DNA from: Rhizaria sp. SCN 62-66
Lineage: Eukaryota
Assembly: GCA_001724265.1 (NCBI GenBank)
Contig: MEDY01000172.1
Location: 1 to 56,861 of the forward strand
Reading direction: 5' to 3'
Length of the DNA stretch: 56,861 nucleotides
The notes beneath the pieces were generated by a model. The model saw only the letters and a program-made list of their open reading frames with translations. It was not told where the DNA came from and did not search any database. Positions 1 through 56,605 of this stretch are shown piece by piece (positions within the stretch are counted from its first letter, which is position 1; each line of letters begins with the position of its first letter). Made by a program: the position numbers and the translations under genes.

Positions 1-2259
1 GAGTGGTGGGATGCTAACGCGGACGGTGTGGGTGGCAAGTGGAGCACTACGGGTTGCAAGCTTGCCTCTGTCTCGAGCACTAATACCACGACGACGTGCC
101 AGTGCACGCACCTGACTCTGTTCCGCGTCCGACTTGACTTCAATAACTTCCTACCCAGGTTTAACACGCTTTCCGCGGGTGACTTCAAGAACCTTACATG
201 GGCCAACATCCAGGCACACCCGCTTCCACTCATCACATGCGCTGTTTGGTTTGTGGCCTATCTGATCTTTGCGTTTATTGCGGCACTCATTGACCGCCGC
301 AAGGACGCGCGCGCGCTGCGCCACTACCACGGCGAGTGGAGCGACCCGCAGCGCAAGCAGTGGGACGCCGTTACGGGCGACACGTCAGCCTCGCTGCCGA
401 CGTCAGCGATGCTCAACCCCGACGCTGGCGTCGAGAGGATGGCCTTCACTGAGCGCTGGATTGATTTTTCGCGCCACTTGCTCAAGCACGACCATCTCTG
501 GCTCTCTGTCGTGTTGCGTTATGACACCAACGCGTTCTCTTCTGTTGGCCGCATCACGGCGGGCTTTGTGCTCGTGCTCACGGGCTACATGATCAACGCG
601 CTGTTCTTCGGCAGTGCTGACGGCAGCGTTGGCTTTAGCACCATCGTCACCTCAGTCATCTCTGCCGCCATTCTCATCCCTGTCGGTGTGCTCATTAGTC
701 TGCTCTTCGGTCGCTCGCAGCAGGGCCGTCTCAAGTCGGCGATCTACGGCTACGCGGAGCACGTGGCGCAGCTGCAGTACACGAACCGCATCAGCGAGCC
801 GTAGTACGCGACGCGCAACGAGCACCGCATGAAGCGCAACCCGGTTGTCAGCGACGAAGACGAGCGCGTTCTGCTGCATTCAATTGCGCAGGCCGGCGGC
901 TGGACTCATGGTCCTGGCAACTCTTTGATCCCTGAGAACGCGCGCGGTGTCCGTGACGAGCGCGAATTGCGCAACCAGTTACGGCTGCTCGTGCACATCG
1001 ACTATGATCTGTTCATGGTCTGGTTCCGCGTGTCGTGGTCTTTCCCGCTCGGTCTCCGTCTCTTTGGCTTTGTGCTGCTATGGATTTATGTTATCGTTCT
1101 TGCGCTACTGATCATTGTGTACGGTATTCAGCTTGACATGAACAACAGCGACAACACCAAGCAGTGGCTTCAGGCTTCTGCGATCTCGAACGTCATTGAG
1201 ATCTTTGCCATGAAGCCAGTCAGTATCTGCCTGAAGGCATTTGTCTTGCTGATAATATCATTCTGCTTCTGCAACGGCAAGCCTAAGGGCCTGGCATCCA
1301 AGTCCACTCCCGATGACAACTTGACTGTGTACAACGCAATCGAGACGTTCGCAGCTTCTGGTGCTGGCAAGGGCCATAAACACGTCGCGACTGATCTTGC
1401 GCTGGACATCACGCCTGAGCGCGGCACCGAAGTTGCTGTTGTTGGCGCTGGCTTTATTGCTGCCAATGGCGATTACGATGACGCTAATTATGCTGCGCTC
1501 CAGAATTCTAGCTCCACTTTTAACATTAACGGATGTGACAACGGCAGCAGTGGCAGGCGCAACGGCGCGGTGCCTAATTCGGTTGAGATGATACCTCTAG
1601 GCAGCTCCACGAAGTACGAAGCAGTGCATTCGGCCCCGTCGTCCCCTGCCCCCCAGCTGCGCTTCACCGGCTCCGCGCTGCCTGCGGCTCCGGTGGCATA
1701 CGCTGGTAACGACGACTATTACAACCACACGGGCGCTGATACGTGCGACTACACCACTGGGAACTACGACAACAACGGCTATAGCAAGACCGGCGATGAT
1801 TGGAATACGACTAAACCCCATGAGACGAAGTCTGCGTCTGCTACTGCCGCTGACATGTCTCCTGCATTTCCGGCTGCTGCCACGCACCCGCATTCTACGC
1901 CCCCGCCGCCACCGCTGCCGCCAACCCACAACGTCACTGCTGGTATCTCACCCCCTGCACGTCTTGCCGTGCCTCCACCGCCGCAGTCCGCATTGCACAC
2001 CACGCACCGCGGCGAGACGGACACGCTGCCCCCAGGCCAGGTGCCGGTCGTCCCGGCCGTGCCCGCGCCCAGCGGCGGCGTGCCCGTGATGGGGACGCGC
2101 TCCGCACTGGCGTACCAGCAGCGCGATGCCTCCGCTTCCGTGAGTAACAATGGCAACCAGGGCGCTGCGGGTAACGCTAGCGTGCAGTCGTCGCTGCGGG
2201 TGCCGATGCCGCTGCCGAGCCACATCAAGCCTGAGTATCACTCTCCGGATCAGCAGTAA
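1..2259 (+). CDS. Polycystin-1 (PKD1)-like GPS/GAIN multi-pass membrane protein, 5' partial; contains in-frame TAG at 802-804
   Basis: Frame 1 is open from base 1. GPS motif WWD...WSTTGC...CQCTHLTLF, then a TM segment, then the PKD1-like segment HLWLSVV...FSSVGRIT...INALFFG. ORFs 28..804 and 829..2259 are in the same frame and separated only by TAG followed by 8 GC-rich codons. Further TM segments and a Pro-rich tail follow; ends TAA. Confidence 0.75.
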
Positions 2260-25617: not shown

Positions 25618-28600
25618 ATGCCCCTTTCCCGGCCCGCGCTGGCCCCCCGCGGCGGCCGCGGCGGCCTCCGCTCACTGGGCAATCGCCTCATCGTCCTCTG
25701 CGTCGTCGCCGTCGTCGCTCTCTCGCTCTCCGTGAGCGCCCTCACCGCTGCCTCTGACGTCCCCAGTGCGACGGGTACCGCGGAGCCCCCGCGATACAGC
25801 GACGCCGCGTTCGTGCGCGCACAGCTCCGCCGCCTCGTCGCGACCCCACACAACGACTATGGTGCCATCACTAATGCTGGCAAGAACAACAACATCGGCA
25901 GTGCTGCGACTGAGACCGCCGATGCCGCCGCGCCTGTCTCGCTTCGCCAAGCCGCCGCCGCTTCCATGGCCGAGACCCACGCCCGCCTCGAGCCGCTGCT
26001 CCGGCTATTCACCCCTTCCCTCAATGCTCCCACCGCCGCACACAGTAATCGCGGTCGCAAACGCTCCATCGACTCTGAGGCTGAGTCCGAGCCCGAGCCC
26101 GCGGCCGCGGTGGGCGAAGTGTGGTCCCGCGCCCGCGACTGGCTGCTGGGGACGATCACGGTGCCGCCCGAGGTCTCCCGCGTCGTCGCCGCGCTCGTGC
26201 CCGCGCCTTTGCTTGCCGCGCTCTCGCAACCCCGCCAGTCTAGCGTGACCGTGGGCAGCGGCACGGAGGGCGAGAGCGAGAGTGAGAGTGCGAGGGCGGT
26301 GGGCGTAGTCAGCGAATGGCTGCGGCAGCAGTGGCTCCACCTCAACGGCGCTCCTGACACTGAGCCTGACACCCAGGCGAGCACGATGAGTAGCAGCAAC
26401 AACGATGGAAATGGCGAGGCTGAGGCTGCTCGTGCTGTGCGCTTCCTGCTGCAGTCCACCGTTGATGGCACCACTGCTTCTGGCGATCTTGACAGCATTG
26501 CTCTCGCGCTCAAGTCTGTTTCTGGTGATGTAAGTGCCTCCTCTGGTCTAAGTACCTCCCGCCATATCGACCCTCTGGCGCACCTAGTCTTCCCCGACTC
26601 GGACATCGACGGAGACGTCGAAGAGTCACACCACGCGCCTGCGACTGCGGCCCGGGCCCAAGCTGCGCCAGCATTGCACCGCCGCCCCAAGCTCAGTAGC
26701 AAAGCCAGCGCTGTCGACCACTTGACCGCGAAGCGCAGTCGTAGCAGCTCCAAGGACGGCGACGCGCTCGGTGGCCAGGGCTACTTTTCGCCCAAGGGCC
26801 ACCTGCCCAAAGGGTACTTACATCACGTCGACGTCTCCCGTCTTAAGGCCGTCTCCAAGTCCGTGACCACGGCGCCCGCAGTCTTCTACTCCCGCCCCGC
26901 CCGCGCCGCCCGCGCCACTGGTGCCGCTGGTGCCGCTGGGTTCGCGGCGCTCGCGGGCGCGGACGCGGAGCCCGACAGCGAGTTCGACTTCGTCGAGTTC
27001 CCCGCGGTCGAGGCCACGGTGGTGTACCCCGGCGCGCGGGCCTGGTCCGCGGGCGAGGCCTTTCCCTGCAATCAAGGCCGTCTCACCACGGCCACCAAGC
27101 AAGAATGGCAGAACAACGGCACCGTCGTCGACCAGGCCGCCGCCGAGGCCGTGCTCGCCACGCCCGCGCGCGCAAACAACTACTTAGACGATGTAAGTAC
27201 CTCCGAAGGGTTTGCCGTGCCGGCGTGCACGCAGGTGTCGTTCTTTGCCAACGAGACGTGGCTGGGGAACTACCTGCCCACGATCCTCAGCCCAGAGCAG
27301 ATCGCCGAGCTGGAAGGTAAGCCGCGACTCGACTTTATGCAGGCCGTGTGCGCGGTGGTGGACGCGCGATCCCCGCCCGACTCGACGACGGTGACGACGA
27401 CCAACCGCGCCGCAACGCTGTCGGTCACCGACCGCGACATGTGCACGCGCTGGCGCCAGTGTTCTGCACACGCGCTTATCGCGCACTACAACTACGAGAC
27501 GAGCGTGTGTCTGTGCCCCTACGACGCGGGCGGCTTGCTGTGCGCGAACCCGCGCCGCACGCACTGCTCGGCGCCGCTTGTGGCCCCCGCGCCGGCCGCT
27601 CTGGAGTGCGACATCGCGGCGCCCGCGTCGGCGCACTGGCCCGCCAGCTTCGGCAACAACTACGACGCCGAGCTCTTCGGCCCCAAGCCTTGCCACCGCT
27701 TCTACCCCGTCTCCGCGCAGCCCGCGGACGTGCCGCTCGCGCCTGGGCTGTCCCCCGCCGACGCCGGAGCTGCGCGCGGGACGCTGCGCCTCACGAGCCG
27801 CCCGCAGTGCGCGTTCGGCGCGAGCGCCGACGACACGACCACAGTGACTCCGATCCAAGGCGTGTCGCAGTACGTGCAACGCGTGCTCGCGCTCGACGGG
27901 TACACATGGGACACGGCGTACAACTTCACCTACTACGCGTTCCGGCCCGCCGACAACAGCTCAGAGGCCTCCGAGGCGCGCAGGGACGACCCCGACGCCG
28001 TGGCGCCACTCTTCGCCATCTCGGCCCGCAGGGACCCCGTCACGGGAGTACGTCGAATCGAGAAAACAAGTAACACATTTACGGCATATTTCGTGATATT
28101 ATTTTCTATAATTAACATCTTACATGTAATATGGCAGATCTGCCATATTTCATTCTTTCAAATCGGAGTTATTCGTCTAACTCACATATTTCCTTTGTTC
28201 TATCTTGTTTTGTCCTCTTCTGCTCCCTTAGATCCAGGACCCTACACTGCCCGCGGCGGCCTACGCCTACACGGCAAAGGTGCTGGACATGAACCGCATC
28301 ACGTCACTGGCCGTCTCGGCCTCCGCGGAGCTCACGCCGGCCATGCTCTCGGCCCTCGACCCCGTCGTGGGGCCCGAGGTCGCTCTCTCCCTCACTGAGG
28401 CCCACGCACGCGGCCTGACTTCCGGCGGCGGCCTCAACGCTGGCGGGCGCATCCACGTCCAGGCCGCGGTTGCGGTCGTGATCGTCGCCGCGCCGGCCGG
28501 CGGCGGCGCCGACACCAGCGCGCGCCGTGCCGCGCGGTTTAACGCCGAGGACCGCGTGCGGCTTAGTTTCGAGGACATGGATTACAACCCCGGAGGCGCG

Positions 28601-28885
28601 CGCGGGGACAAGTTCAGTGACACAGACAAGTGGATCGTCATCTCGGTCTGTGTCGCCGTGGGCATCATCGCCATCATCGTCGTCAAGCTGCTGCTCAAGC
28701 GCAAGGAGCGGCGCTACTTCGAGCGCGCCCGCCGTGACGCCGCGCGCGCAGACGCCGAGACCGCCGCCATGCGGGCCACCGCGGGGGCCAGCGCAGTCGC
28801 GCCGGCGGCCGCGGCGCTCGAGGCGGAGGCGGGCGCCGGTGTCGCTGGACAGCAGGGCGTTAGCACACCGGCGACGGTGCAGTGA
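25618..28885 (+). CDS. Type I membrane protein with signal peptide, an EGF-like Cys cluster and a C-terminal TM
   Basis: Exons 25618-28047 and 28232-28885; phase-0 intron GTACGT...CTTAG. Hydrophobic leader LIVLCVVAVVALSLSVSA; C..C...CLCPYDAGGLLC EGF-like motif; TM WIVISVCVAVGIIAIIVVKLLL followed by KRKERR. Ends TGA. Confidence 0.7.
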
Positions 28886-35786: not shown

Positions 35787-38375
35787 TCACTCTCGGCCCG
35801 GATCCATTGGCGACACGGACACCTCCGTTGAAGCATCCCCAACAGCTGCCTCAGCGCCAGCGCCAGCGGTTGCGGTTGCAGACGCGGATGTGGGAGCGGG
35901 AAACTCCCAGCCTGCGTGCGCGAGCGGCGTCTTGTGCATCGCGCAGAACTCTCGAGCGCGCAGCAGCTGCCTGCGCGTTTTTGCGCTGACGCCGACGAGG
36001 GCGACGGCAGCGCCGGCGGCCGCGTAGCGCTGCAGCAGGCGCGTGAGCTCGGCAGCCGCAGTGTAGTCACCGACAACGCAGTCAGAGAGATCCAGCACCA
36101 CCTGGAGCGGGTCACGGACAGGGGTAAACTTGTCTAAGAGCAGGTACGACGAGCCGAAGAAGAGGCCGCCGTCGACGAAGTACAATTTCACTGTGCTCGC
36201 GCGGTCTGTTGGGTCCAGCTGGTGTGCATTCACATCGGCGTTGGAACTGTTGTTTGTGACGGAAATGGAGAGGTCGTGCACTGTGTGACTGTGCGCCTGC
36301 GCAGTGTATCCGTTACCAGCGCCAGCCCGAGAGGACGAGACAGCGTTGTAATCAAGTTGGTGTTGGCCGTCCTCCTCATCGTCATCACCGGTGTTCTTCT
36401 GGGCGTTGTTCAGCATTGCATCGCGCCTGCGCGTGCTATGCTCCGCACTGTGGCTCCCGTCGCTATCACCGTTGCCCCCACCGTTGCCGTTGTCGTTGCC
36501 GTTAAAGTCTCTCGCGAGCCCCGCGGTGAGCGAGGCGTCCCGCAGCGCACCGGGCCCCGCGCGCAGGCCCACGGTCTGCAGCGCCGACAGCGAGTCCACA
36601 CCGTCCGCGGCCGCAGTGCCAGTCTCGCCGCTCGAGTCGAGACTGGCTGAGTCAGCAAATCCGGGGGAGAGCGCACCGGTGGCCGCGGAGACGCCTCGGC
36701 GGCCAGCCCACAGCTCGGCCTGCTTGATCGAGCCGAGTGACCCGGCAGCGAGCGCGGTGCGGAGAGAGGCCCACTGCTGCGGCGCGAGGTGCGCGGGTGT
36801 GACGGTGAACTGCGCGGCCGAGTCTAGCACGAAAACGAGCGCGGAGAGCGCGAGGCCAATGCCGACGGCGATGGTGAGCGAGAGGAACACGGCGGCAAGC
36901 GAGACGGCGACGATGCAGAAGGCGTCCGAAGGGCGCACGCGGTGCAGCATCAGCAGCGACGGCCAATGGAATGTGTGGATCGCGATGCCGAAGATAACGC
37001 CCGCGATGGTGGCCATCGGTACCTCGTTCACGGCAACGTTGAGCGCGAGCACGATGAACAGGACCATCCAGCCGCACACAAACATCGACAGCCGGTTGCG
37101 CGCGCCAGAGTTATAGTTGAGGATGGACTCTCCGACCATGGCGTTGCCGCCCATCCCGCCGAAGAGCGAGGACGCAACGTTGCCCAGCGCCTGTGCGGCG
37201 ACCTCGCGGGACACGTCTTTCTCGCGCAGCGGTTCGTGCAGCAGCTCTGCCATGGCCTGCGCGGTGAGGATTGACTCGATGAGCCCCACAGCAGCGGCGA
37301 AGAAGGCGTACTGCAGCACGGGGCCCCACGATGTGCTAGTGTTGGGGATCGAAGGCCAGTGGAAGGACGGGAGCGAGCCAGCCAGCGGGGCGGACTCGCC
37401 GACGGTGCGCGTGGGGCGGTTGAAGATGACGCGCGCGAAGACGTGCTCAAAGAATGACCCCACGAGCAGCGTGACGAGCGTGGCGGGGATAATCTTGCCG
37501 GCGCGGGGCACGCGCGGGAAGAAATTGATCACTGCGACCGAGAGCAGCACGTTGATGATGCACATCCACGTCGCGCCGTCGGCGAGCGACATGTAGACCT
37601 TGTACTGTGTGGGACACTCCTCGAAGAGCGGGCCAGCTGGGTCGGTGCAGCGCTGGAATGTGGGCAGCTGCGACATGAAGATGACCACGGCCAAACCGTT
37701 GAGAAAGCCGATCATCGTGGTGCGCGGGATAAGGCGCACGAGGCGCCCGAGGCGCAAAAGTCCGATCGCGGCCTGAAAGACGCCGCAGAAAAGCATGGCC
37801 ATAAACAGATGCTCTCGGCGCTCTGATAGAGACAAGTGCGACAACGGGCCGCCTGCGGAGGTGAGCTCGGCGACGGCGATGGCGATGGCGCCGGCGGCAC
37901 CGGAGATGATGGGCGGGCGGCCCGTGAGCAGCCCGGCAATGACGCCCATGAAGAAGCACGAGTAGAGCCCCGAGATGGGGGCCATGTTGGCGAGCACTGC
38001 GAATGCGATGGCTTCCGTGGCCATAACGACTGACAGCGACACACCCGAGAGCACTTCGATGCCGAACGTCAGCGGGTGCGAGCGGTAGTACGCCCACGAG
38101 CTCTGCGCAAACGCGGGCAGTTCTTTGAGCTCGGCAACCGTCTCTTTGGTCGAGTCGAGCGTGGACTGAACGAAGGTGCGGAGACCGCGCAGAGGGTCCG
38201 GAGCGGGGTCGTCGGGGAGCGGCAGCTCCGGATGCAGTGACACGGGCGGCTAGTTCCATGCGGCGCCGTCGCAGGGGCTCGCCATACCGGAAGGAAGCTC
38301 GTGGCGCGGTCGCCGGGCAGATGGGGAGTCACCCGGGAGTGACGGCGTGCCAAGCTCGATGTCCTGCAGTGGCAT
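35787..38375 (-). CDS. SulP/SLC26 anion permease with STAS domain; contains in-frame TAG at 38252-38250
   Basis: Motifs EAIAFA...GLY...GRP.IISGAAGA, IGFLNGLA, VGLIESILTA, GGMGGNAMVGES, and a C-terminal STAS (GGLFFGS...VVLDLSD...DYTAA). ATG at 38375 is in frame through the TAG; the next ATG after the TAG lies inside TM1. Ends TGA. Confidence 0.88.
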
Positions 38376-39137
38376 GCTGGAGTGCGTGGCAAAGTTGAAG
38401 TTCGGAAGAAGAAATATAGGATGATAATAAAGTCGATTGAAGGTATAATAAAGTGATACTGTGCCGGGTGAATTTGTTAACATCATACTAACAGGAAATT
38501 CTCACTGACGGATAATTTGTAGTTATCCATTCAGTATTCATGCTATTCTTGACATCGTTGCGCAGGGAAAGCGGCTCCTCGAACAATAGGAAGTCGTAGT
38601 TGTCGACACCTCTGCGATATCTAGACATTATATCGGTATTATCGGGAAAATATTTGTTAATTAGATGTCATTTTGCATTCGTTGTACTCTAACTTTGTCG
38701 TACAATGCTAGTTACTGTTCATGTTTCCCTATCTTTGTTTCCTTTCGACACCATCTTAGAATCGACGAGCACTACATTGTGGAGTCAAACCGGCTTGTAT
38801 ATTAATACACGTTTGAACAGAATTTTAGCGTGTTTGTACAGCTGTACGGCGCAAGCACAACTCTCAGTAAGTAAATCGTCCTGTGTTATGCTTATCGCTT
38901 GTCGAGAGTGAGGCCCGTCTGCGAACCTTTTGGGACCCCGAGCACCGATTTAGCGTGTTTGGTTGTATGCAACGGTGTGGACTTTCATATCGATAATTTT
39001 TGCGGGTTTACCCAGTAATGGAATAACAGATACCTTTGATCACAGGCGATAGTCTTAATCTAGGTACATATATCTTAGTTTGTAACCCCCGTAGTTAACG
39101 GGTCGGGTAAGATTGCTTTGAGTCCCAAACAAACAAC

Positions 39138-40756: not shown

Positions 40757-43700
40757 TTACGCCGTAGCCCTGCCCAGCGGCGCCGCGTCCTCGTCAGGCT
40801 CATCGTACTGCGGCGGCGCATCCTTGCCCGCGGCGCCTTGAGCTGCATCAACCTTGTTTGTGTCGTCGTCGTCGTGGTGGGCAGGAGCACTGTGAAACAC
40901 GACTGCGGACGCAACCACACCAGCGTCTGTGTCTGCGTCAACGTCTGCGTGCACGTCGTTGATGTCAACGGTCTTGCCGCTATCAGCAGATCCCTCGATC
41001 GCGTTGGCGCCAGCAGCAACAGCACCCATCATCACCATTGTTTGCACGAGGGCTTCGCTTACGCGGTGCCGGCCGCCGCGGCCTTGGCGGCGTGCACCTC
41101 GGCGAGACGCTTGCGCTCGCTGGCCACGCCGGGCAACAGGAGCAACAGCAACAGGAGCAACAGCAGCAGCAGCGTTGACATCAGCCTCGGCGTTAACTTC
41201 AACATCAGCGTTGGCCTCGACATCAGCTGGAGCTGCGCTATCAGCGGTTCCAGCACCAGCGTTGGCATCAGCGCCATCAACTGCGAAAACAGCCGCACCC
41301 GCACTCGCACCCACGGCAGCAGCAGCAGCAGCAGCCGCAGCCACAGCGTCAGCGCCATCACCGCTCTTCTCCTTCTGACCGCGACGGCAGCAACAGCAAT
41401 AGGCGATGATAATGATAGCAATCAGCAGAGCAGCACCGCCGGCAGCAGCGCCGATGATGATAGGCAGAGAGTCACTACCACCGCCTCCGCCTGCGACAGT
41501 ACCGTCGTCAGTGCCGTCACCGCCCACGCCGCTGTTGTCACCGGGAACGCCGTCGGTGCCGGGGTCGGGCTTCACAGGGCCAGTAGGATCAGTAGGCACT
41601 GTGGGATCTGTAGGTCCAGTAGGGTCAGTGGGTCCAGCGGGCTGATTAGTGCATGTGTTAGCGCCGGTGCGCAGCGTCTGCGCGCAGGTAGTAAGAACAC
41701 CCTGCACGCCGCACTGCTTTGTTGCGGGGCAGTAGACGCACGACACCGAGGCCTCGAGCACCTCGAGACAGGCCTCGCAAGCGTTAGACGTGGGCACGCA
41801 CAGCGCGTACGCCGTCAAAGACGGGAAGGCCGCCGCGCTTGTCGGCGGCGCCGCGTTGGCGCCAGACACGGACATCAGCGACGAGGCGAGACTGGCGGAC
41901 GACGCGGCTGCGTTGCCGCCCATTGACGACGCGGCGCTGTTGTTGGCGTCGACGGCCGCAAAGCGCACGCTCATGGTCACGGCGTGCACGTCGCCAGTGT
42001 TGGCGCGCACAAACGACTGCTGCTGCTGAGGGAGCACCGCGGCGGAGGACGAAGCGGCCGCAGCGACGCTGGCGGCGGCGCGCGCAAACGGACGAGAGCC
42101 GCTGCCGGATGCACTAACACCAGCCGGCGCCGTGGCCTGCGTCTGTTCAAGCAGCCCCGCGGCCTGCAGGCGGTACCGGTGTGAAAACGGGCTGATCACC
42201 GCGTTGGCGGCAGAATTAGCAGCAGCACGAGCAAAAGGAGAGCCAGCGGCAGCAACAGTAAATGCTGGAGCAAGCTGCTGCGCATCTGCCTTGCTTTCTT
42301 TCTTGGCATCATTTTTGTCGCTGTTTCCACTGCCAAAGATCAAATCCTTCGCCGTCTTCAAGGCGTAGTCTTTGATCTCTGCGGTAACGCGCGTCTTGAG
42401 CGTGCCAAGTGCATCAGCGAGGTGGTTCGACACCAGTGCCTCGAACGATTGCGTCTCGGTGGGGTTATCAAAGTTGGGTGTAATCTCATCCTCGTCGGCA
42501 ATCAGCATCGTAATGATTTGCTCAGTCTCCCACTCAGCAGGGCCGTCCTTAGAAAGCGTCGTCTTGAAAAAACACGCGTCTGCGACGTCGAATTTAACTT
42601 GGGTAGCATTGAAATAACTCCGTTTGCTGTGATCGAACACTTTGATGTCGATGTCGTGCGCGTACTCGGCTGCGCGAATGCCTACGTCAACATCAAAGCG
42701 CAAGCGGTGCGGCTCAGTACAGGTGCCAAACGCCACTAAAGCAACAGGCGTAAACGAGGGCATACCGTCCAAGTCGAAATCAGCAGTTGCGTTGGCGTAC
42801 AATGGCAGTAGAAAACTCGCGCTGACGAAGCTGCTTGCCTGGAGCTTGAGTTTCGGCAAGAACATAAACTCAAACTCTGCGTGTCCTTTGATGTCGACGT
42901 TGTGCGTCCAATCGTAGCGCAGATCGCTACGCACAACCGTAAAGCCGTCGGCGTCGTTGTACGCCAGCTGCATGGGGTCCTGAGTAATGTGGCCGCGTAC
43001 GTTAAGAGACCCCTGCGCTTTTAAGCTGCCAGTGATGTTGATACCAAACCCGAGGTTTACACCAAAGCTAAAATCGATGGATGCAATGGAGAAACTGGCG
43101 CCAACCAAGTCGATCGAGCCTAAGTTGTAGCTTTGGTCTGGCATCTTAGCCTCAATGGACGCCATGGCGATCGCGTCGACGTACGCCCTCAGGGTGCCTG
43201 TGGAGACGCCAGCCTTAAACGTGTCGATCGGGCTTGTGATCTCGAAGAAGATTGTGTCGAGCCGTGCACTACCAGTAGCGTAACAGTTGGAGCAGGCGAC
43301 AGAGGCGCTAGCGTGTGTGATGTACTTGCCACAGCATAGTTTTTTGGAAGCAAAGCTTGTGTCGGTAGAATCGCAGTCGACGTCAGAGCAGCTCACTTCC
43401 TTCTCGAATGTCTTTTTTGCGCGCTGGGTTACGTGGTCGAAGTTGAAGCCTTCCGCGGTGGCAAGGGTGGACGTGACTGAAATAAAAGGGGACTCCCAAG
43501 TGTCGCAAAAAACGCCAAGCGCAAAGCAGTTGTACGTAATGCGAATGTAGTATGGTAAAGGTGACGCAGCTAGAGATTTTCCAGAAAATGTCACAGTGAA
43601 AGACGCACCGTTTGCGATTGTCCTGGTGCTAACATCGTTTTGTGCAAAGTCTGGCAACCCAGGAATTGCGCGGTACAAGTCGATCTCACCAGTAATGGAC

Positions 43701-46700
43701 TTGCCTGCAAGCGAACGCAAACTGAAGGTTGTGGGCTGGCCGGCAGGAAGTGTGCGACTTAAATCAGGCGAGACAAGGACAAAGACGTCGGGGTTAACAA
43801 CTGAGAGCGTTTCAGAACCCCACTGGTCGCAATCTCCGTCGACGCAGTTGTACTTGAAGATGAAGGAGTACTTGCTCGTGAGCGAGGTGACGGCGGGGAA
43901 CGCCTGAGCAACTTCGTACTCGCCGCCCGGGACCACGCTGCCAGTGAAGGTGCGCGAAGCAACCACGCGCTACTTGAAGTCGCGCTCCACCAAGTTGATC
44001 GTAATGCCGGTATTAATGTTCAGACTTGTCGACTTGAAGCGCAGTGGAATAGGCTTGTTGTACTTGATCACAGCGGTCGGCTCAAGAAGCTCAAGAACGC
44101 TATACGTTGTAACACGAGTGGAGCTCCAATGCGAGCAGGCAATAGATCCACAGTCGTACGAAATCTTGGCGTAATGTGCGCCTACTGGTGGCGGGAACGA
44201 GCAATTGAACTGCACAATCCCGCTGCTCGGCACAATTGTCGGCTTTGTGTCCACGACCGATAGCTCAGCATCGAACCATAGCTTGACGTCGGTGTGGCAC
44301 GACACAGTGATTGGCTGGCCAATCCTAGTAGAGCGCGCTTTGATTATGAACGTGTGCTTACTTCCTGCGGGTGCCGTTAGCGCCGAAATAAGAGTAAAAT
44401 CGGTCGATAACGGCAGCGAAAACTGGTGCGACTGTGACGTGGCGCCGTTGCCGTACTCGAAGTAAAAATACATCGGATACTTCGACCCTTTAACAGCAGG
44501 AATGTTAAAGGAAAATGTGGAAAAGCTGGGGACATTTTGCGTCAATGTGTAAAAAATCTCGTCTCCAACTGCTTTGTCATCGTACAGAGTAACTTTGTTT
44601 GTTGTCGCGGAGCTATATCCTGATTGAAACACAGCAGTAAACGGCTCGTCTGCCGGAAGAATCTGTTTAGTTGTAGGTGAGATCAACTTGAAATGCGACA
44701 GATAGAAGCGTGTTGGGGCTGATTGCACAAACCCGCAGGCACTAGAATCCGTGCCCTGACAGAGCGTGCGCATCTCAACGTAAAATTCGTCGTCGTAACT
44801 GAATGAATACGTGCCAATATTAAAGTAAACTGTAAACCGTTGTTGCACGCCTGCCACGAATGAAAAAGTCCCTTCACGCCCGTCAACATCAGAGTCAGGT
44901 CCCGCAATATCTTCCTTGAGTAAGAATATTAAACGAACATTCTGCACGTTGCGGCTCATTGTAACCGTGAACACTTTGCTGACAGTTGAGCCGTTGACAA
45001 ACAGATTTTTCGACAGCTCAACATCATCCATCCCCACTGTTGGAAGTACATAGCTGCGACTTGCTGACGTCCATACAAACGAGCCACACTTAAGACGGAA
45101 ATGCACGTCTGCCGCGGCTTTAAAAGTGAGCCCGACCAAGGTCATTATATTCGGGGAGAATGAAACGACCGTAACGTATTCTGTGATTGTGTCACCCAAG
45201 AAGCTTGGAATAACGGCGCTTAGTGACGGCGTGCAAGACGCTGGAAGCGTTGCATACTGGGCGATTTGAAGAGTATAGGGAGAGCCATAGACAAGCTGCT
45301 GCGACGACGACGGAACAACAAGCTCAAAATCGGTGATCGAAAACTTGCTTGACCACCAATAGTCCGAGCTGGGAAAGCTAGAACACACAACACGAAGCGC
45401 AAACACTTGTTCTGCGCTGTTGCCGCCGCGCGCGACACGAAGACTTACAGTGTGAGAGCGCCCCGACTGTGTTGTGATCTTTACGGTAGAGTTTGACATA
45501 ACGTCGTCCGAATAGCGGGTGATGCCTTCATAAACAACTGACACGACGCATTCTTTACTCGAGCTGTAAGCTCCAGACAGAATCTGAAAATCGATCCATT
45601 CGTTGGCCTTAATAGAAAGCTTCGGGTTTAACCAGTAAAAAGTCATATCGCCGTGATCAAGCTTTTTGAAGCCTGCTGACGTGTTCGTGTTTGCAACGCC
45701 GTCAAATGCAGCACTGGCAGCTTCACCCCGCACAGCACCGGGTGAAACAGCAAGCAACGCAGGTGTTGCAGCCGCCTCAGACGCTGCAACGCCGGCGGTT
45801 GTAACTGCACGCTCCAGAGCAGGCTCGGCTTGCAAAAGCTCCGCGTGCGACGTCCGCAGCACCATGGCCTCCGGAAAGAGCTCAGACAGCTCAGCCAGCA
45901 CTGCCGCGTCCGCTGCGTACGTTGCGCCTGCGCCTGCGTTAGCGTCTGCGTCTTCCTCGCTTAAAGAGCCAGTCATAGACGCGAAGCCACTGCCAAAAGC
46001 GGTTTCGGCAGTTTGTTTCTGTTGCTGTTGCTGTTGCTGCCGCTGTAGCGCAGCGGCAGGTGCCAGCGAGTCTGGAAGCAGCGACATGGACGCAAGCGCG
46101 CCGCGCGCAGCCGCGCTCCAACTGTTGCAGTACGCCTTAACAGCAGGGTGCGCCATCACCTGCGCCCAGTCTGCGGCGCTGGGGTCCGCAAACAACATCG
46201 ACACGGCGCCAGAGCGGAACAGCGCACCGGACGCCGCGGGCGCCGTGCGCAACGCCAGCGTCTGCAGCCCTGTCGTGGGGTCGCGCGTTACAGTCACGCC
46301 GTTGCGCAGCACGCGGCGGTAAAAGCCGCCCGCGAGAGACGCGCTCACGCTGGGCTCCGACGACAAAGAAGACGATGACAACGCGGAGTCGCGCGGACGC
46401 TCGGCTGCGGCGTGCGCGCGGGCGTTAGCAGAGCCAGCGCCGGAGCCGGAGGCTGAGTGAGCGCGAGCGTAAGGGTGAGCGCGGAGCTGTGTGGATTGAT
46501 TGGCAGCAAGCGCGGCCGCAAGCACGGTGGCATCTAGACCGAAGTCAAGACTCGTCACAGAGTCAGCGTCGTGGTCGTAATCGTCTATGTAGTTGCTGTC
46601 GTTGTCAACGTCGTAGTCGTCGTCGTCACTGACAGAGCTGTCAAAGTCACTCACGTTCACAACAGCCTCTGTGATCGCACCACCGAAAGCGGCGTCACGC

Positions 46701-47620
46701 AGAATAGGCTCGGACTAAACAATGACCGAGCTATCCAGCTGCGGAGGCTGATGAGAAATCGGAGTGTCGATAACAAAAGTGACGCCAGAATCAAACGCAG
46801 ACGCAGACTCAGACGTGGATGCGGATGCAGCGCCTGCCTTGGCCTTGCGACGGCGTGTGCGTGTGCGTGTGCGCGTTTGCTTGCGAGCACTTGCGGACGC
46901 AGCCTTTGCGTCTTCGTCCGCGCTCTCAACGCCAGCGTCGGTGCAGCCCACGCTGTCTGCGCCGGGCGCGTACAGCAGCCAGCCGGGACGCAGGCCGGCA
47001 CCGTGGGCCCACGCCGCGGCGTCGGCGTCGGCGGGAATGCCGTTCACCGTTACCGTCGACGAGCTGCACGTAATCGTGGGTGCAGAAGTTAAAGCCGCGG
47101 CAGCATTGGGCGCGAAAGACAGCGCGTCGAGCCTGAGCGTGTTGGGGCGCAGGACGGCGTCGTAGTTGTAGTCCGTGCGGCGCTGCGACGCGGCGTCGAG
47201 AAATGACACGGAGTAGTTGTACACGCGCGAGCCGTCGCGCAGAAACGACGTTGGGGCGGGCACAAACGTTAGCGGGCTGCGCGCGGGCGAGCGCGAGGCG
47301 CCGGGCTTGTTGAACTGCACAGGGGCAGAGTGTTAAAGCAGTGCATGATGAGTGGAGCGCATGAGTGGACGCGAAAAGACAAAAGATGAGGGAGGCGAGA
47401 AATTTTGAGTTGTTGAAGTAATATGTAATTTTGTACGTTGGGGGATAGCGTGGGTGCGCTTTGGATACATGTCGCGCTAAAGCAAAAATATGAAGCTGTC
47501 CGAAAAGTAACTGTGACGTACAACCAGGACACCGAGAACGGTGAAGGTGACGGTGATAGCGACACCGAAGAAGATTGCGAGCGCAATCATAATCCGACGG
47601 CACGTGGGTTTAGCCCCCAT
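40757..47620 (-). CDS. Giant (~2218 aa) cell-surface protein: N-terminal hydrophobic anchor, tandem beta-rich modules, PSI-like Cys cluster, PTD stalk, C-terminal TM; in-frame TAGs at 46717-46715 and 43972-43970
   Basis: Exon 1 47620-47522 (MGAKPTCRRIMIALAIFFGVAITVTFTVLGVLV), intron GTACGT...TGCAG, exon 2 47314-40757. Three track ORFs (46715..47320, 43970..46660, 40757..43966) share one frame and are split only by TAG. TM IIIGAAAGGAALLIAIIIIAY followed by CCCCRR. Ends TAA. Confidence 0.75.
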
Positions 47621-48501: not shown

Positions 48502-48591
48502 CCTCGCCGCCGCCCGCCTCGCCGCCGCCCGCCTCGCCGCCGCCCGCCTCGCCGCCGCCCGCCTTGCAGCTGCCCGCCTCGCCGCCGCCCG
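48502..48591. repeat. 15-bp GC-rich minisatellite (CCTCGCCGCCGCCCG), about 6 units
   Basis: Directly visible tandem array with one degenerate unit (CCTTGCAGCTGCCCG). Confidence 0.85.
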
Positions 48592-49143
48592 CATCCCCCC
48601 GCACGCCGCTGCACATTGCAAGCCGCTGCACACCACATGCCGTCTCACATCACAAGTCGCTTCACACCACATGCTGAATCGCCAGCGCGGCCAGTTGCGC
48701 AGCGATATCAATAGACGCAGCCAGCGGCGCCCCCGCAAACCGTGCCGCGTCCTCAGCCTCCAACAGCTGCGCGTTACCTGCCCCAGCCCCAGCTCCAGCC
48801 CCCATCCAGCCCCAGCTGTTCATGTTCGTATTGCTAGAGCCAGCACCCGCGCTGTTTTGCAGCTCCGATTGCGGCCCTGACCTTGGCGCGCACGGCGTCA
48901 AACTGCCTATGCTCCTCCTCACACCGCTCCAGCAGACTCAGCCTTACAGGACCAGTACCAGCGCCCGTGTTTGCGCCAGTGCCAGTGCTCGTGTTAGTGC
49001 TCGCGCGAGTGCTCCGGCTAGGCCACATCGCACCTGTGACAGAAGCGGCAACAGCACCAACCACTTTTGTCACTGTCCCATATACTGTTTATGCAAGAAG
49101 TCGTGCGTCACATTATATTAGTCCAAATGACGTTCTATCTACG

Positions 49144-49184
49144 ACAAATGGCGTGAGATAACATCCTCACTGTTCGAAGCCAAG
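49144..49184 (+). repeat. Copy B of the 41-bp dispersed direct repeat (copy A at 40558-40598)
   Basis: Same orientation as copy A, 39/41 identical. Confidence 0.85.
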
Positions 49185-49460
49185 TACACACTTACCGATC
49201 ACCGATCTTTTCTCGGAACCAGCGCAGCCTTCACCACAAGCAGAAAACCACACACACTACTCATCGACACGTTGATGTTGCATTGTATCATCCGTAATCG
49301 AACAATATTATTTTGTATTGCGAATTATTCTGGTATAGTCACATTTTTCACGTTATTAGTTTTCTTAGGCAGTTACACTTTCTGCGACTGTTTACGTTTT
49401 TTTTTCACTCTTGGTTGTCAAGGTCGTGCAACTGGCAGGTATCGGTATCTAGCTCTCAGC

Positions 49461-52400
49461 ATGAAGCCGATGTCACCCATAGAGGAGGCACGCGTACGCA
49501 AAGTCTTTTCAGGCCGCGCTTTCTTACCCCGCGCCATTGAAAGCATTGCCCTTCGCCACCAGTGCCCCTCCGCAAACCCCGCAGCAACTGCAGCTGCTGA
49601 GGATGAGGTGCTCGCACTAATCGCCTCCGCTGTTGCCGTCTTGTCCCCCTCGGCGCTTGATGGGCTGCTCGCCGACGCCCTGTTCCCCGCGGAGCTTGCT
49701 AACTTCCACCCTTCCCTTGGCGCGGGCGCCGTGCGCGGCCCCAACGCTGTCCACGCCGCCGTGCGCTTCGACCTCCCGCGCGCTCTCGCCGCGCTGCTCG
49801 CGTTGGGCGCGCCCGCCGCGGCGCCCGTGCTGGGCTTCTCTGTTGTCCACGTTGCGGCGCTGCTCGACCGCGCGGCCTGCGCGGAGGTTCTGCTCCGCGG
49901 CGTTGCGCCCGAGGCGTGGCGCGACATGTGCGAGCGCAGCGCCGCGGCGGGCGCGACGGACGCGCTCGAGGCCTGCATCGCATCGTTCGGGCGATTCGTC
50001 CCCACGCCCGTGCGCCACAACGCGCTGACGGCGCCACTCCGGTACGACGCCGCGCAGTTTGCCGGCGCCACCGCGCTCGCGACGCTGTCGCCGCCGCGTA
50101 GCCGGCCGCTGGCTCTCGCGGCCTCGCTGGGCCACGCCGCGGTCATGGCGGTCCTCGCGCGCCCCGGCGTGTGCGCGGCTGTGCACCGACACCTGGCGTT
50201 TGAGCAGGCGCGCGGGCTGCTGGTCGCGGCCGTGCAGGGTGGCAGCGCCGAGTGCGCGCGGCTCGCGCTCCGCTGGGGACTGCGTGAGACGGCCGAGCCA
50301 CACCGCGGGCCTGGTCGTGGGCTCCGCGATGACGTGGACAACGACGACGGCGACGACGAAGATGGCGGCGACGACGACGGCGACAACGGGCTAGCCGCTG
50401 AGGCGCTGATCGACCGTTTGACGGTTCAGAGCGTCACGGAGGTCGCGCGGTCAACCCCCAGCAACGCCCCGGATAGCTGTGCCGCGCTCAGCCACGCTGC
50501 ATCTAACCACGCTGCGTCCAGCAATGCTGCGCTAGACGTGCTCCGCGTCGCCGTGCCGCGGGCGTTCGCGGACTCAGACGCGGCCGCTGCGCTGGCCACG
50601 GAGCGCGCCCGTCAGCTGCGCGACGAGCAGCGCCGCGCGGCCGCGCTTGCGAAGCAGTTCTCGCATAACGCAGACGCGGAGGCGTCGCAGGGACTTGGTG
50701 CAGCGGTCGCGGCGCTCTTCTCTGCGCGCGTCTGCAGCCAGGGCTCCGGAGTGCTGCTGGCGCCCGCGGTTGCTGCGGCAGAGTCCGCGGTGCAGCGCGC
50801 GCTGACGCAGCTTGCGGCCGGGCGTCTGCAGTGCCGCTCTGTCGTCGAAGAGCACGGCGCACAGAAGCTGCGAGACGTTGTTTTGGCGCACACGGGAGAG
50901 ACATGTATGGTGATCGTGACGAAAACGACTGTGTGCGAGGACGACGACGACGAGCGCGCTGTCTTAGTTGAAACAGCAGTGAACGCAGACGGAAACGTCG
51001 CTGACTTTGTCGCTGTCACACTGACTGATGGTTTCCTTGAAATTCTCGAAGATTACGACTCAGAGCTGGACTCGAGCACTGAATCAGACTCTGACCCCGA
51101 ATCTGATTCTGATTCTGACTCTGGTTTGGAGGCCAACTCGAAAACCACCTCAAAGCACGAGCACGCGAGAGCTACAGCGCCCGACGAGTCGGACCCCGAA
51201 CAGACGCCGGCACCACAGACGCCGGCTGAACGTGTTGCTCTTTATTGTGACACCGGTGTCAGGACGTCGCCCATGCCTGCGTGGCTGTCGCAGTCTGCAC
51301 TTGCGCCGCTAGACTTTGGCGCGGTCCTGTTTCTTGTCCGGACCTTGCTGTCTGCACGCGTTTTTCCGCCGCGTTCGAACCACGCCAAAGAATTGCGCGG
51401 CCTTCGCGAGCTAGCAGAGCATTAGCTCCATCTTCTGGTGGTCGATGCCACGCCGAGCTTCGATATTCTCGCCCGCAGCAAGCTCGCCACCGCGCTTGCC
51501 GGGTCTAACTTCACCACCGTGACGGCGATGCTGCGCAAGCCGGGTTTTCTAGAGGACGTGTTCGACCGCTCGGCGCTGACTCCATAGGACACCGTTCTGT
51601 GGGGTCTCGAGGCGCGCCCCAGCGCCGCGCGCGGCAAGTGGAAGCTTGCAAGGGGTGGACTTGCCACGCACGTGCCGCACTCGCTGGCCGGCGCACGCTG
51701 CGCACGTGCGCTCCGCTGTGTGCTGATGTGGCCACTGCTGCCGCGGCACTTCAACATATACCACCCGCGCCGTGCAGCCGCGAACGTGCCTCAAATTGAC
51801 GCATTTGATGAATGGCATCCGGTCCCCGTACGGGAAGTGTTGCGCCGTGCATTTTTGCCCAAGGAGCTCGTGCAGTCCCTGGTGGAAGGCGTTGCAACGG
51901 GCGCGATTGACGAAAGCTTTGGCGCATTGCTTGATCCGTATGCTGAGACAGCCCTTCACGAGGTCTTGCGCGTTGCAATCGCGTACAACTGGATGGCGCC
52001 GGCGCGCGCGTTACTTCTGTTGGAACGTCTCGGTGCGCCTTTAACCGCGAGCGCGCCGCCCCCGGTTCACCCGGCACTGCTGATCCCGCGATTTCGCAGC
52101 TTGCTCCTGTCCGTGGCGCAACTGCTCGCCCACTGTCCAGTGCCGTCGGCGCCTTCTCCCGCCGCCGTGGCCGCCGCCGGTGAGTTTGCCGACCCCGCGG
52201 CAGACGTTGATCTCGCGTTTGAAACACCTACCAGCGGTGTGAATTTTACTACAGCGTATGCTGAGGCGCTTGCAGGCCTTCGCGAGACCGTCGCCGCGAC
52301 GCCGGGTGCCTTGGCGGCGTTTGACGGCCGTGTCGCGCGGCTTGTCACCCGATTGGCGAACGCTATCAAAGTGAAAGACGCCGCCGCGGCGGCCACCGCC

Positions 52401-53702
52401 CTGCTGGTGTCGACGCGCGTGTCTGCGCCACAACTGATGGTGCGTCCGCCTGCCCCCGCCAGTGCGCGGCAGCCATTCGCCCCGTTCCAGGGCGCGCTGG
52501 CCGCCGCGGTCCAGTGGGCGCTGCACGGCGCGCCGGAGACGGGCGCAGCGTGCTCCGCGCTGCTAAGCGAAGGCGGCGCTGGTCTCTCGATCAACGCCGC
52601 GCTCGCGCCGCTGTGGCTGTCTGCGGGGCCACTGCTGCACCGCGACGATGTTCCCATGGGCGCGGCGCTGCACCGCCGAGTGGACCGCACGCGCGGGGAC
52701 CCGCCGCTGGCGCTGTGCGCCGCGGGCCGCGATCTGCGTGCGCGCGCAGTGCAGCGAACGCTCGCCGCGCTGTGGCCTGCGCATCGCCGCGCGCTGATCG
52801 ACGTGAGCCTGGCGCCCGGGCTGTTTCAGAGCGCGTGTGCAACGGGCGACTCCGCGCTGATTGCCTCCGTGGTCGCTGCGGTACGCGCACTCGAGCCGCA
52901 ACGGCCGCTCGCAGCGCTGTCGCCCACAGCGCTGCCGTCTGCGGCGCTGCCGTCTGCGGCACTGTGTGCGCACCGGGGATACTGCGCACTGCTCGCGGGC
53001 ACGGCATCACCCTTCGCGCCTCTCACGGCCGAGGACGTCACTGCGGCGCTCGACCAGCTTCTCATGCTATTCCCGGCGAGCGAGATTGCGACGCACAGCT
53101 GTCGCGGCTGCTCCGCGCTGCAACCGCACGAGCATGTGGCGCGGACACCGCTGATTCCGCTCGAACACCTGGAACTCGTGACGACAACGCGTGGCTGCGA
53201 CGTCTACGAGCACTTGTTCCCCGGTGCGCCCACACTGATGTGCGACTGGGCCTTCGTCTTTGCGCAGTGGGCGCCCGCTGAGGGCTTTTTCCTGCGTCTC
53301 AGTGCGCCGCGGCAGCGCGCGTGGCTGGCGGTGCTGCAGCGCGGGGCGCGCGCTGGTTTGCTTTCGGCGCCGGCGCTGCGGGATGCGCTGGCGAGCAGTC
53401 GGAACGCGACTTCGGAGAACAGCATCAGGGGATTGCGCGTCAACGACGGCGCAAACGTTCTCGAATTGAGTCGTTTGAAGTGGAGTCATACTCCGGATGC
53501 GGTTGAGAGAGACAACCCGGTGGAAGGAGAAACGGTTGAAGAGTTCGTGCTCCGTGTGGCGACGAATTGGCCAGCGTGCGTCCAGAGTGATCGTGGAGAA
53601 ATGCACCCGCTTCCAGTCGATGCTGCAACACTTAGGTCAGGACTTGCGGCCGTGTGGAAATTCTTTCGAACACTGGATGAAGAGTCCCGAAAGCAAGAGT
53701 AA
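49461..53702 (+). CDS. Large (~1413 aa) divergent ankyrin-repeat protein; in-frame TAGs at 51423-51425 and 51585-51587
   Basis: Ankyrin-like units NAVHAAVRFD..ALLALGA, VVHVAALLDR..CAEVLL, PLALAASLGHAAVMAVL, LLVAAVQGGSAECARL. ORFs 49272..51425 and 51672..53702 are in frame, and the 246-nt gap is GC-rich, coding-like and interrupted only by TAG. Ends TAA. Confidence 0.72.
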
Positions 53703-54238: not shown

Positions 54239-56605
54239 ATGAGTTGGATTGAACGCGATCCATGCCCAGAAGGGGACAATTGTTCAAACCCCATTTGCAA
54301 AAACGGACACCCAACTCGGCCGTGTTTTCACGTCCAACTGCACAAGTGCAAAACTGCGATTTTAGGTAAGCTGTGTCCATTCCGTCACATTAAGGTTCTT
54401 CCGCTGTGCCGCCACGAGACCCGCAAGCAGTGCAACGAGATACTCTCCGCCAGCATCAACCGCCAGGGTTCGAAGATCATCTGTGCATTCCGGCACACTG
54501 ATGATCCGGAGTCGGAAGCCCGCCCCAAGGTCGATGACCACAAAGGTGGTCATTTCAAGGGTGGTGATCGCAAGGGTGGTGACTACAAGGGGGGCGAACG
54601 TCGCTCTGGCCCCGCGAATGACACTCACGGCAGCGCGCGCCCGCATAAGCAACATGCGACTACATCCTCGCGCTCGCCGCCGACACATGCGCACGCATCC
54701 GCACTTGCGCCCGCCCCGGTGTCCTTGCCCCCGCCCGCGGCCGCAGCCGTGTTTACGCGCGCGCACGACCGCGCCGCGCCCGCGGAGCGCGTGGCGCGGC
54801 CCGACGAGGCGTTACCGTTCCACGCCCGCGTGCCGTGCCCACCTGCGGCGCAACGCTACGTGTTCCCCGCGCCCGGCAGCTGCGGCGCGTGGCAGACTGA
54901 GCTGCGGTGCCGCCTTGCGCCGTCGGACGCGCCGGGCGTGTTCCGCGTGCAAGCGGTGTCGGCCGAGGCACTGGCGGCCGCGGAGGAAGCACTGCAACGA
55001 CTCGTGCTTGTTGCCACGGCGGCGACGCACGACTGGCAGCACGAGGCCGTCGACGTCGCGATGGCGGACGGCTCGCGCCTTGCTATCGGCGCCGGACTGG
55101 TCCCCGTGGGGCCCGCGCAGCGCGCGACCACGGCATTTGTCACTGCGCACGACATCAGCACTGAAGTATACGCCGAGGCCAACGCCGCCGACGCACAGGA
55201 AGACGTGTCGATTACGCGCGACCTCTGCGTACGCGTGGGCTGGAATACGCCTGCGCACTCCGGCACCGCGCGGCTTGAGTTCCGTTCCGCCGCCGCCGCG
55301 AACGCGTCGATGCTGCGGCTGCGCGGGCACTGGCAGGGTTTCACTCTGGAGCCGCAGGGCTTGGGCTGCAACGACCTGGCACTCGACAACGCAGAGCTGC
55401 CCGCACTGAGCGACGACCTCATGTACTTTGCCGCGGCCCACAACAGTTTTCCTGACGACGTTTCTGATGTTCGTGGCGCTGGACACGGCGGGCCGCGGTT
55501 CCTGGTGCGCGTTACGGGGATCAGCGCGGAGCTCTCTGCTGTGTCGTTCCGCATCATGGTGGCGACGCTGCCCGGCTTGAGCTCGGCTGCGGTGCTGTAC
55601 GAACATTGCATCCCGGGCTACGGACTCGCTGACCCGGAGGAGCTGCCGCCGTGGCTCGCCGCGTTTGTCAGCGACGACGCTGCGCACGCGCCGCTGGGGT
55701 CATTCACCCCCGCGACCGGCGCGCACTCGTGGCTGCTGTGGCCTGCTCGCGGTGACTCTGCGGCGGAGCTGGCCGATCTTATTGGCCGCTCGCTCGCCGC
55801 CGCCTCGGAACAGAGCGATGGCGCTGTGAGCGCCGAGGTGATGCACGCGGCGACGGTGCAGCTGCCGCGCGCGCTGTACTTTACCTCGCTGGCGTTTATT
55901 GTCACACAGATGTCCAATGCGGCGCGAACGATTGACTGCGGCAGGCCTGCCGTGGGCTTCGCCATCCACCGCGTTAAGCAGCGTTGCCAGATTGTGCTTG
56001 CTACACGGTCCGACGCCGCCACCGCCGCCGTCGCCTCCATCACGTTCAAGCGCGTTGCGCGCACTGAGATTCAGGTGTGCAGCGCAATGGCGAATTTTCC
56101 CGCGCAGGCCGCGCTGGCTGCACTGCGCGCGGCGACTGTGCTGGTGCGGTACGACGCCGCGCGCTCAGCAGTCGTTGTGATGTCGCTGAGCGCCGATCAC
56201 GAGGCCGCTGTGACGCAGGTGCACGACCTCAACGCGCAGCTGGAGCAGGGCCCCGACGCGCGCTGCGCGGTTGTGGTTGCGGGACTTAACGGCCGCACGC
56301 GCGCGCAACTGCTGTGCATGGTGTGTGGCGCGCTCGTGCCGCGCGCGTTCTCGGGAGGCGAGCTGTCCGCGTGCGGCCACTCGGTGTGCGCGGGCGAGTG
56401 CGCGAGGAAGGCTCTCGCTGTCATGACTAACTAGCGCGTCGCGCGCTGCCAACACGCCGACTGCCTGCGCCGCGCGGCTGTAGCGGAGGCGCTGGGGACA
56501 CGTCCTCCCCAGCTTGCTGTGCGCGACCTCCGCAGTTTTGGGCTTTCTGAAGATAATGTGTCGCAGATTATAATGGCCGCCTTGTGCGCGCGCATGAACA
56601 CATGA
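54239..56605 (+). CDS. CCCH zinc-finger / RRM-like / C-terminal RING-like protein (788 aa); in-frame TAG at 56432-56434
   Basis: Three N-terminal CCCH-like fingers (e.g. CPEGDNCSNPICKNGH), KGGD repeats, RNP1-like GTARLEF. C-terminal CMVC...CGH..C...C-[TAG]-CQHADC needs readthrough to obtain its last Cys pair. Then 56 more codons to TGA at the GC-to-AT boundary. Confidence 0.7.

Follow-up and report, generated by a model that had tools for sequence, protein, structure and literature searches.

Nuclear genetic codes in which UAG and UAA differ in meaning are rare, and outside the ciliates two such lineages are counted in print (Panek et al. 2017, PMC5304391). In the rhizarian exLh (Sainouroidea), UAG encodes leucine, UAA and UGA are the stops and UAG never terminates; as described in that paper, 71 transcripts contain 384 UAG codons, UAG is the commonest leucine codon in the proteasome genes, 82 of 86 UAGs fall at hyperconserved leucine columns, and the stops are 56 UAA and 15 UGA. 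In Iotanema spirale (Fornicata), UAG encodes glutamine and makes up about 8% of the glutamine codons, UAA and UGA are the stops, and a change in the GTS motif of eRF1 is reported in the sections of PMC5304391 and PMC9161772 that deal with this species. Among the phyllopharyngean ciliates, the account of codon reassignment in PMC11687900 describes an uncultivated clade with suppressor tRNA genes in which UAG is leucine, and Hartmannula and Trochilia, in which it is glutamine. Here we report on a stretch of 56,861 nucleotides (contig MEDY01000172.1 of assembly GCA_001724265.1, deposited as Rhizaria sp. SCN 62-66), referred to as a whole as the window, in which seven TAG triplets lie within the reading frames of five genes. 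We conclude, with a probability of about 0.92, that TAG is a sense codon in this genome.

What the window shares with exLh, in so far as the published description of that organism extends, is that only UAG is reassigned in a non-ciliate protist, with UAA and UGA as stops and UAG never a terminator. In contrast, 7 of 12,186 codons are TAG here, conserved columns contain none of them, and the stops divide 6:6 between TAA and TGA; the parallel with exLh drawn in an earlier note on this DNA is a loose one, UAG being a common leucine codon in the exLh genes described (PMC5304391). The habitats are also unlike, exLh being described as living in an insect and the DNA of the window coming from wastewater and bioreactor samples. 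Iotanema spirale, on its published outline, resembles the window in its UAG-only reassignment and low use of the new codon, and differs in that the residue there is glutamine, against which a weak test on neighbouring residues speaks here (see below). The phyllopharyngean ciliates, in what is described of them, likewise have UAG alone reassigned and were found through metagenome mining; they prefer UAA as a stop, whereas TAA and TGA are equally used in the window. With its 57-kb contig, G+C content of about 60%, 13 genes and spliceosomal introns, the window looks unlike a ciliate macronuclear genome. A full-text search of the literature, supplements aside, turned up no account of any wastewater eukaryote in which UAG is reassigned.

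Coding past the TAG triplets

Codons were counted in 12 gene models with a total of 12,186 codons, which is a small sample. Seven in-frame TAGs were found in five of the 12 genes (0.06% of codons; table 1), and neither TAA nor TGA was found in frame. Six of the genes end in TAA, six in TGA and none in TAG, and AT-rich DNA then follows; on a contig from a related organism, described below, both stops are TAA. In the 50 codons past each of the seven TAGs, the G+C content is 0.54-0.71 and GC3 (the G+C content of third codon positions) is 0.66-0.84. Past all 11 true TAA or TGA stops that were scored, the G+C content drops to 0.31-0.50. The twelfth stop position scored was an out-of-frame TGA behind the intron of gene g9, which explains this apparent exception and led us to the intron and to the true TGA stop of the gene. 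A codon-usage score, for which six TAG-free genes served as the training set, was best in frame 0 past all seven TAGs, being clearly positive at five and near zero at two. Beyond the TAGs (n = 7), a further 56-1,985 codons can be read before the frame closes, as against 1-82 codons at the 12 TAA or TGA positions tested. What characterizes a change from stop to sense confined to UAG was therefore found here: coding continues past UAG (7/7), UAA and UGA are kept, and UAG is never the terminator.

Table 1. Positions of the in-frame TAGs, the genes that carry them and related features of the window (an asterisk in a peptide marks TAG).
Feature	Position	Strand	Description
TAG in g13, ALTP*DTVLWG	51585..51587	+	codon 709 of the Met-start protein; ...ACT CCA TAG GAC ACC...; next 50 codons G+C 0.71, GC3 0.76; 704 more codons open
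TAG in g13, LAEH*LHLLVV	51423..51425	+	codon 655, 54 codons upstream of the other g13 TAG; downstream in-frame coding score +0.64 per codon
TAG in g1, EP*YA	802..804	+	loop between hydrophobic segments
TAG in g11, WN*PP	38250..38252	-	65 codons ahead of the Pfam sulfate permease domain
TAG in g12 exon 2, VIV*SEP	46715..46717	-	g12 encodes a large surface protein
TAG in g12, DFK*RVV	43970..43972	-	homologue P0007 collinear across it
TAG in g14, TN*RV	56432..56434	+	within a RING-like C-x2-C...C-x-H...C...C-x4-C pattern
g1	1-2259	+	GPS (GPCR proteolysis site) motif at start, then several hydrophobic segments; multi-pass membrane protein
g11	35787-38501	-	sulfate permease with STAS (Pfam)
g12	40757..47620	-	exon 1 47620-47522 (33 codons, Met and hydrophobic signal/anchor), exon 2 47314-40757, TAA
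g13	49461..53702	+	1,413 codons, first ATG to TAA, two TAGs; orphan protein
g14	54239-56605	+	Cys/His-rich N-terminal motifs (CCCH-like by eye) and C-terminal RING-like pattern
Weakly ankyrin-like N-terminal stretch of g13	49647..49904	+	sole site of any Ank signal, sub-threshold
Segment of g13 read as ankyrin in the earlier note	51495..51605	+	helix-rich; loose L..A...G....V..ML..PG pattern, then TP-TAG; unrecognized as ankyrin by every tool used
Intron of g9	28048-28231	+	184 nt, AT-rich, GTACGT...TAG; spliceosomal; non-coding control
Intron of g12	47521-47315	-	207 nt, AT-rich, GTACGT...CAG; spliceosomal

Three of the genes add evidence of their own. In g11 the TAG is at residue 84 and the Pfam domain begins at residue 149; as the next Met downstream is already part of the domain's first membrane segment, the sulfate permease domain needs read-through. 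In g14 the last Cys pair of the RING-like pattern lies behind the TAG, so that this cysteine pattern also needs read-through; the best alignment in the PDB, to the RING of TRIM32, spans the TAG with an E of 0.37, which is not significant. When 1,200 residues of g12 were used as query in an exhaustive HMMER search, there were six matches, two of them its own pieces. A homologue from another assembly (P0007; 36% identity, E 8e-31) aligns unbroken across the TAG at 43970-43972 of g12, with a Ser opposite the TAG, beside a gap and in a variable turn.

An ordinary terminating role for TAG, under which these five genes would be split or young pseudogenes, or the TAGs intronic or assembly errors, is improbable. 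In its favour, most nonsense mutations would yield TAG where GC3 is high, the introns of the host do end in TAG or CAG, and gene callers split these genes. However, the damage would have to consist of nonsense only, with no frameshifts, and both composition and frame are kept past all seven TAGs; that five of twelve genes should be broken by nonsense alone with their downstream coding character intact is very unlikely. Whereas the TAGs have GC-rich surroundings, both introns known so far are AT-rich and open with GTACGT; one TAG is spanned by a collinear homologue, and a terminal TAG was seen in none of the genes, either in the window (0/12) or on the related contig (0/2). Identical TAG-cut products are recorded on seven contigs (P0002), four contigs (P0004) and one contig, and since the same products occur on several independent contigs the TAGs are not errors of a single assembly.

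Some observations weigh against translation of TAG. There are only seven sites, each in a region of poor conservation, and no informative relatives were found for four of the five genes with a TAG. No column that Pfam covers, or that is conserved in any other way, contains one of the seven TAGs, no Pfam domain covers any TAG in segments of 137-201 residues around the five TAGs outside g13, and the RING and ankyrin matches are all sub-threshold. Because the codons mostly end in G or C, we estimate that single-step nonsense changes would mostly give TAG, which makes the finding of TAG only, and of no other stop in frame, weaker evidence than it looks. The window contains no tRNA gene according to ARAGORN and Rfam, and no eRF1 gene according to a Pfam scan of all long open reading frames (ORFs).

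On balance it is highly probable that TAG is a rare sense codon of a nuclear genome in which TAA and TGA are the sole terminators. UAG would be read by a dedicated tRNA with the anticodon CUA, tRNA(CUA), and the release factor would no longer act efficiently on it. The TAG at 51585-51587 would then be one of seven sense TAGs.

The putative ankyrin motif of g13 and the residue that UAG would encode

In the earlier note TAG was held to be translated, and this part of it stands on the coding past TAG, the open frames and the collinear homologue; the step that it took from an ankyrin motif in g13 to leucine does not. The read-through frame of g13 (49131-53702) consists of 764 codons, TAG, 53 codons, TAG, 704 codons and TAA, and across 51585-51587 it yields exactly the peptide that had been given, ...ALAGSNFTTVTAMLRKPGFLEDVFDRSALTP*DTVLWG. 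All five other contexts listed there (VIV*SEP, AEH*LHLL, WN*PP, EP*YA and TN*RV) were located in the sequence, and a seventh, DFK*RVV at 43970-43972 on the reverse strand, was absent from that list. A near-length search found no relatives of g13, and a shorter-length search returned only its own three TAG-cut pieces.

The argument for leucine was that the TAG at 51585-51587 sits at the conserved leucine of the ankyrin TPL motif. When a segment of 100 residues was scored with the Pfam Ank models, as had been suggested, there were no matches at E<=10 with L, Q or E in place of TAG, a null result limited by the HMMER filters, which remove most matches above about 0.1. The whole of g13 has a single Pfam match, to Ank_2 (E 0.06; 14.3 bits, below the cut-off of 27.3), at ORF residues 202-257, approximately 450 residues upstream of the TAG, and its score is 14.3 bits with L, 14.2 with Q and 14.2 with X at the TAG, so the choice of residue has no effect. 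Sequence matches in the PDB involve only the N-terminal part of g13 and are weak (SHANK3 ANK, E 0.005; DARPin, E 0.31; GABP-beta, 1.2). Atlas scored the N-terminal piece of g13 as ankyrin-like at 0.92, and its ten best named matches are all Ank; only 69-86 of 256 features are shared, which by the tool's own standard is a lead. For the piece of g13 after the TAGs, Atlas found nothing (best 0.78). An AlphaFold2 single-sequence model of the TAG region is all-helical, with a mean pLDDT (predicted local distance difference test) of 41.0 and a pTM (predicted template modelling score) of 0.30, too low for any claim on the fold either way, and that of the N-terminal region (mean pLDDT 42.8) is too poor to use.

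Aligned by Smith-Waterman to the N-terminal repeats of g13 itself, the segment scores no better than chance, 33 of 200 shuffles reaching the same score. Leucine follows TP in 3 of 48 cases in the proteins of the window and in 1 of 9 in g13, about the background leucine frequency of 7.9%. By eye, the 24 residues before the TAG have an ankyrin-like spacing, the TAG is one residue out of the 33-residue register, and the stretch past it, DTVLWGLEARPSAARGKW, makes a poor second helix. Compared with the ankyrin repeat (Pfam Ank and Ank_2; a helix-turn-helix of 33 residues with TPLH), g13 thus has a weak signal in its N-terminal third, a loose L..A...G....V..LL..G spacing before the TAG and a TAG after TP. 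It differs in that no part of it reaches the Pfam threshold, the TAG segment is without any match and no fold is predicted with confidence. As no ankyrin repeat could be detected in the segment, the TPL argument is almost weightless. The ankyrin motif is a low-weight hint, not evidence for leucine, and leucine read from a single motif of this kind is too little, taken alone, to warrant the annotation of UAG as Leu.

The composition around the TAGs was also examined, by a naive-Bayes comparison of the residues within three positions on either side. This test has low power, since in leave-out trials the true residue ranked first in only 26-139 of 300 sets. It placed Glu, Val and Phe first, Leu fourth and Gln 12th of 20. 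The seven UAGs among 12,186 codons would equal 0.7% of the leucine or 1.9% of the glutamine codons. The assignment to leucine is neither supported nor refuted. Drawing on priors from published cases and on this one weak test, we place leucine first among the single residues, at odds that still make it unlikely; residues other than Leu, Gln and Glu, taken together, come next, followed by glutamine, then by glutamate at poor odds, and last by TAG not being a sense codon.

Leucine would be inserted by a tRNA-Leu(CUA) derived from tRNA-Leu(CAA), and such a reassignment is mechanistically easy because leucyl-tRNA synthetase does not read the anticodon. Two of the contexts suit a hydrophobic residue by eye, namely LRELAEH*LHLLVV, where the TAG falls on an i/i+3/i+4 helix stripe, and the loose TP* position, in a model of low confidence. 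The neighbour test favours Leu over Gln by 2.3 nats, a gap that is attained by 50% of true-Leu and 20% of true-Gln sets; however, the test separates Gln from all other residues rather than singling out Leu, which stands behind Glu, Val and Phe. The precedents are exLh, in the description of its code (PMC5304391), and the uncultivated phyllopharyngean clade, in that of PMC11687900, although the share of leucine codons taken by UAG here is unlike that in exLh. Against leucine, three further contexts (EP*YATRNEH, WN*PPVS and RDFK*R) look like polar loops or disordered regions, the one site that could be aligned faces a Ser within a turn, and the ankyrin site offers neither an Ank match with L, Q or E nor a habit of leucine after TP.

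Glutamine, the commonest outcome of UAG or UAR reassignment, would be inserted by a tRNA-Gln(CUA) and is rather unlikely here. The change from CAG to TAG would be an easy one, as CAG makes up 302 of the 369 glutamine codons, and several of the contexts are polar or loop-like. Precedents for a change of UAG alone to glutamine are described for Iotanema spirale (PMC5304391; PMC9161772) and, in the species treated in PMC11687900, for Hartmannula sinica and Trochilia petrani. Against it, none of the seven TAG sites has Gln within three residues, whereas 126 of the 376 Gln residues in the window have another Gln that close (P about 0.06; 0.10 with the TAG-bearing genes only); this comparison and the 12th rank in the neighbour test are both weak and post hoc.

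The alternative that UAG specifies another residue (Glu, Tyr, Lys, Trp, Ser or others), or is read by a near-cognate tRNA in a context-dependent manner that competes with termination, is a serious possibility, if short of an even chance. UAG is reported to be glutamate in one ciliate (PMC10553269), and Glu comes first in the neighbour score, by a method that puts true Glu first in only 65 of 300 trials. Near-cognate reading finds some support in the base after TAG (scored at 803+2, 38249, 46714, 43969, 51426, 51588 and 56435), which is a pyrimidine at six of the seven sites compared with 38% expected from codon position 1 (P 0.015, post hoc and from a small sample). At the 12 TAA or TGA positions tested the following base is a purine in nine, and a purine also follows the true stop of g9. 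This pattern would fit selection for weak-termination contexts; if upheld in a larger sample, the pyrimidine excess would suggest that sense UAGs are kept in such contexts, and their decoding may depend on context. On the other side, the sample is tiny, the tests were picked after the data had been seen, and no particular residue has positive evidence in its favour.

Gene content and host of the window

The window is a contig of 56.9 kb with a G+C content of about 60% and sharp dips to 31-50% in intergenic DNA. A Pfam scan of the long ORFs, which lie on both strands, revealed eukaryotic proteins: a kinesin, an RCC1-repeat protein, a Sel1-repeat protein, TrmO, a sulfate permease with STAS and a membrane protein with a GPS motif. 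The window further contains no fewer than two spliceosomal introns, both AT-rich and both opening with GTACGT. With the intron of g9 in place, its exon 2 spans 28232-28885 and its true stop is the TGA at 28883-28885. The TAG at 28229-28231 was rejected as a coding triplet, being the 3' splice site of this intron, and another apparent in-frame TAG was rejected because the gene concerned (18678-25154) has its first Met downstream of it. The stretch is present in public metagenomes of bioreactors, wastewater and activated sludge, obtained in several studies; 13 run entries carry part of it and four carry at least half, and one run of poly-A RNA contains 21% of its sequence words. The host is an uncultured, GC-rich and intron-poor microbial eukaryote. 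Prokaryote genomes in which stray contigs of the host were looked for contained none.

A metagenome scan with the kinesin identified a contig of about 4.4 kb from a JGI metagenome (L001, 1-4417), whose kinesin shows an overall identity of 71%, rising to near-identity in the motor. Judged from its sequence, this contig is DNA of a related species. The gene 3' of its kinesin has no counterpart in the window, which indicates a different gene order, and neither an in-frame TAG nor a tRNA gene was found on it.

Among the TAG-bearing genes, the layout of g1 presumably resembles that of polycystin-1-type proteins. The family of g12 comprises large surface proteins with repeats of a Cys motif that end in Y-x-C...C..W.S, and its homologues (P0007, P0010 and P0011) were seen only in metagenome assemblies. 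No Pfam domain was found in g12, and a metagenome scan gave 600 pattern matches for it, none of which was confirmed. A search for relatives of g14 among 5.8 billion proteins found only its own TAG-cut product of 731 amino acids. Two repeat arrays were also observed. The region 11405-14413 is an array of 33-nt (11-codon) tandem repeats with a G+C content of 0.75, in which both strands are open for approximately 1,000 codons; the product of the forward strand is rich in Ala, Glu, Arg and Lys and is probably a coiled-coil. The intergenic DNA from which g12 and g13 diverge contains seven copies of a 15-nt tandem repeat, CCTCGCCGCCGCCCG, at 48502-48607.

A probable rare sense codon and its implications

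We tentatively suggest, at odds somewhat below even, that an undescribed non-ciliate lineage, common in wastewater reactors, has reassigned UAG alone and independently, with UAA and UGA both retained as stops. This would bring the non-ciliate cases to three, exLh and Iotanema being the earlier two. Such a change could be at an early or constrained stage: UAG makes up a very small share of the codons (0.06%), is absent from conserved positions and nearly always has a pyrimidine after it, as though termination were still a rival to its decoding. A further case of this kind, GC-rich and with very low usage of the new codon, would bear on how stop codons are captured. It raises the questions of whether the codon must vanish first, and whether context shields early sense UAGs from residual termination. 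There is a practical consequence as well: every gene caller that has met it has split its genes at TAG, and its proteins are therefore wrong in the public sets.

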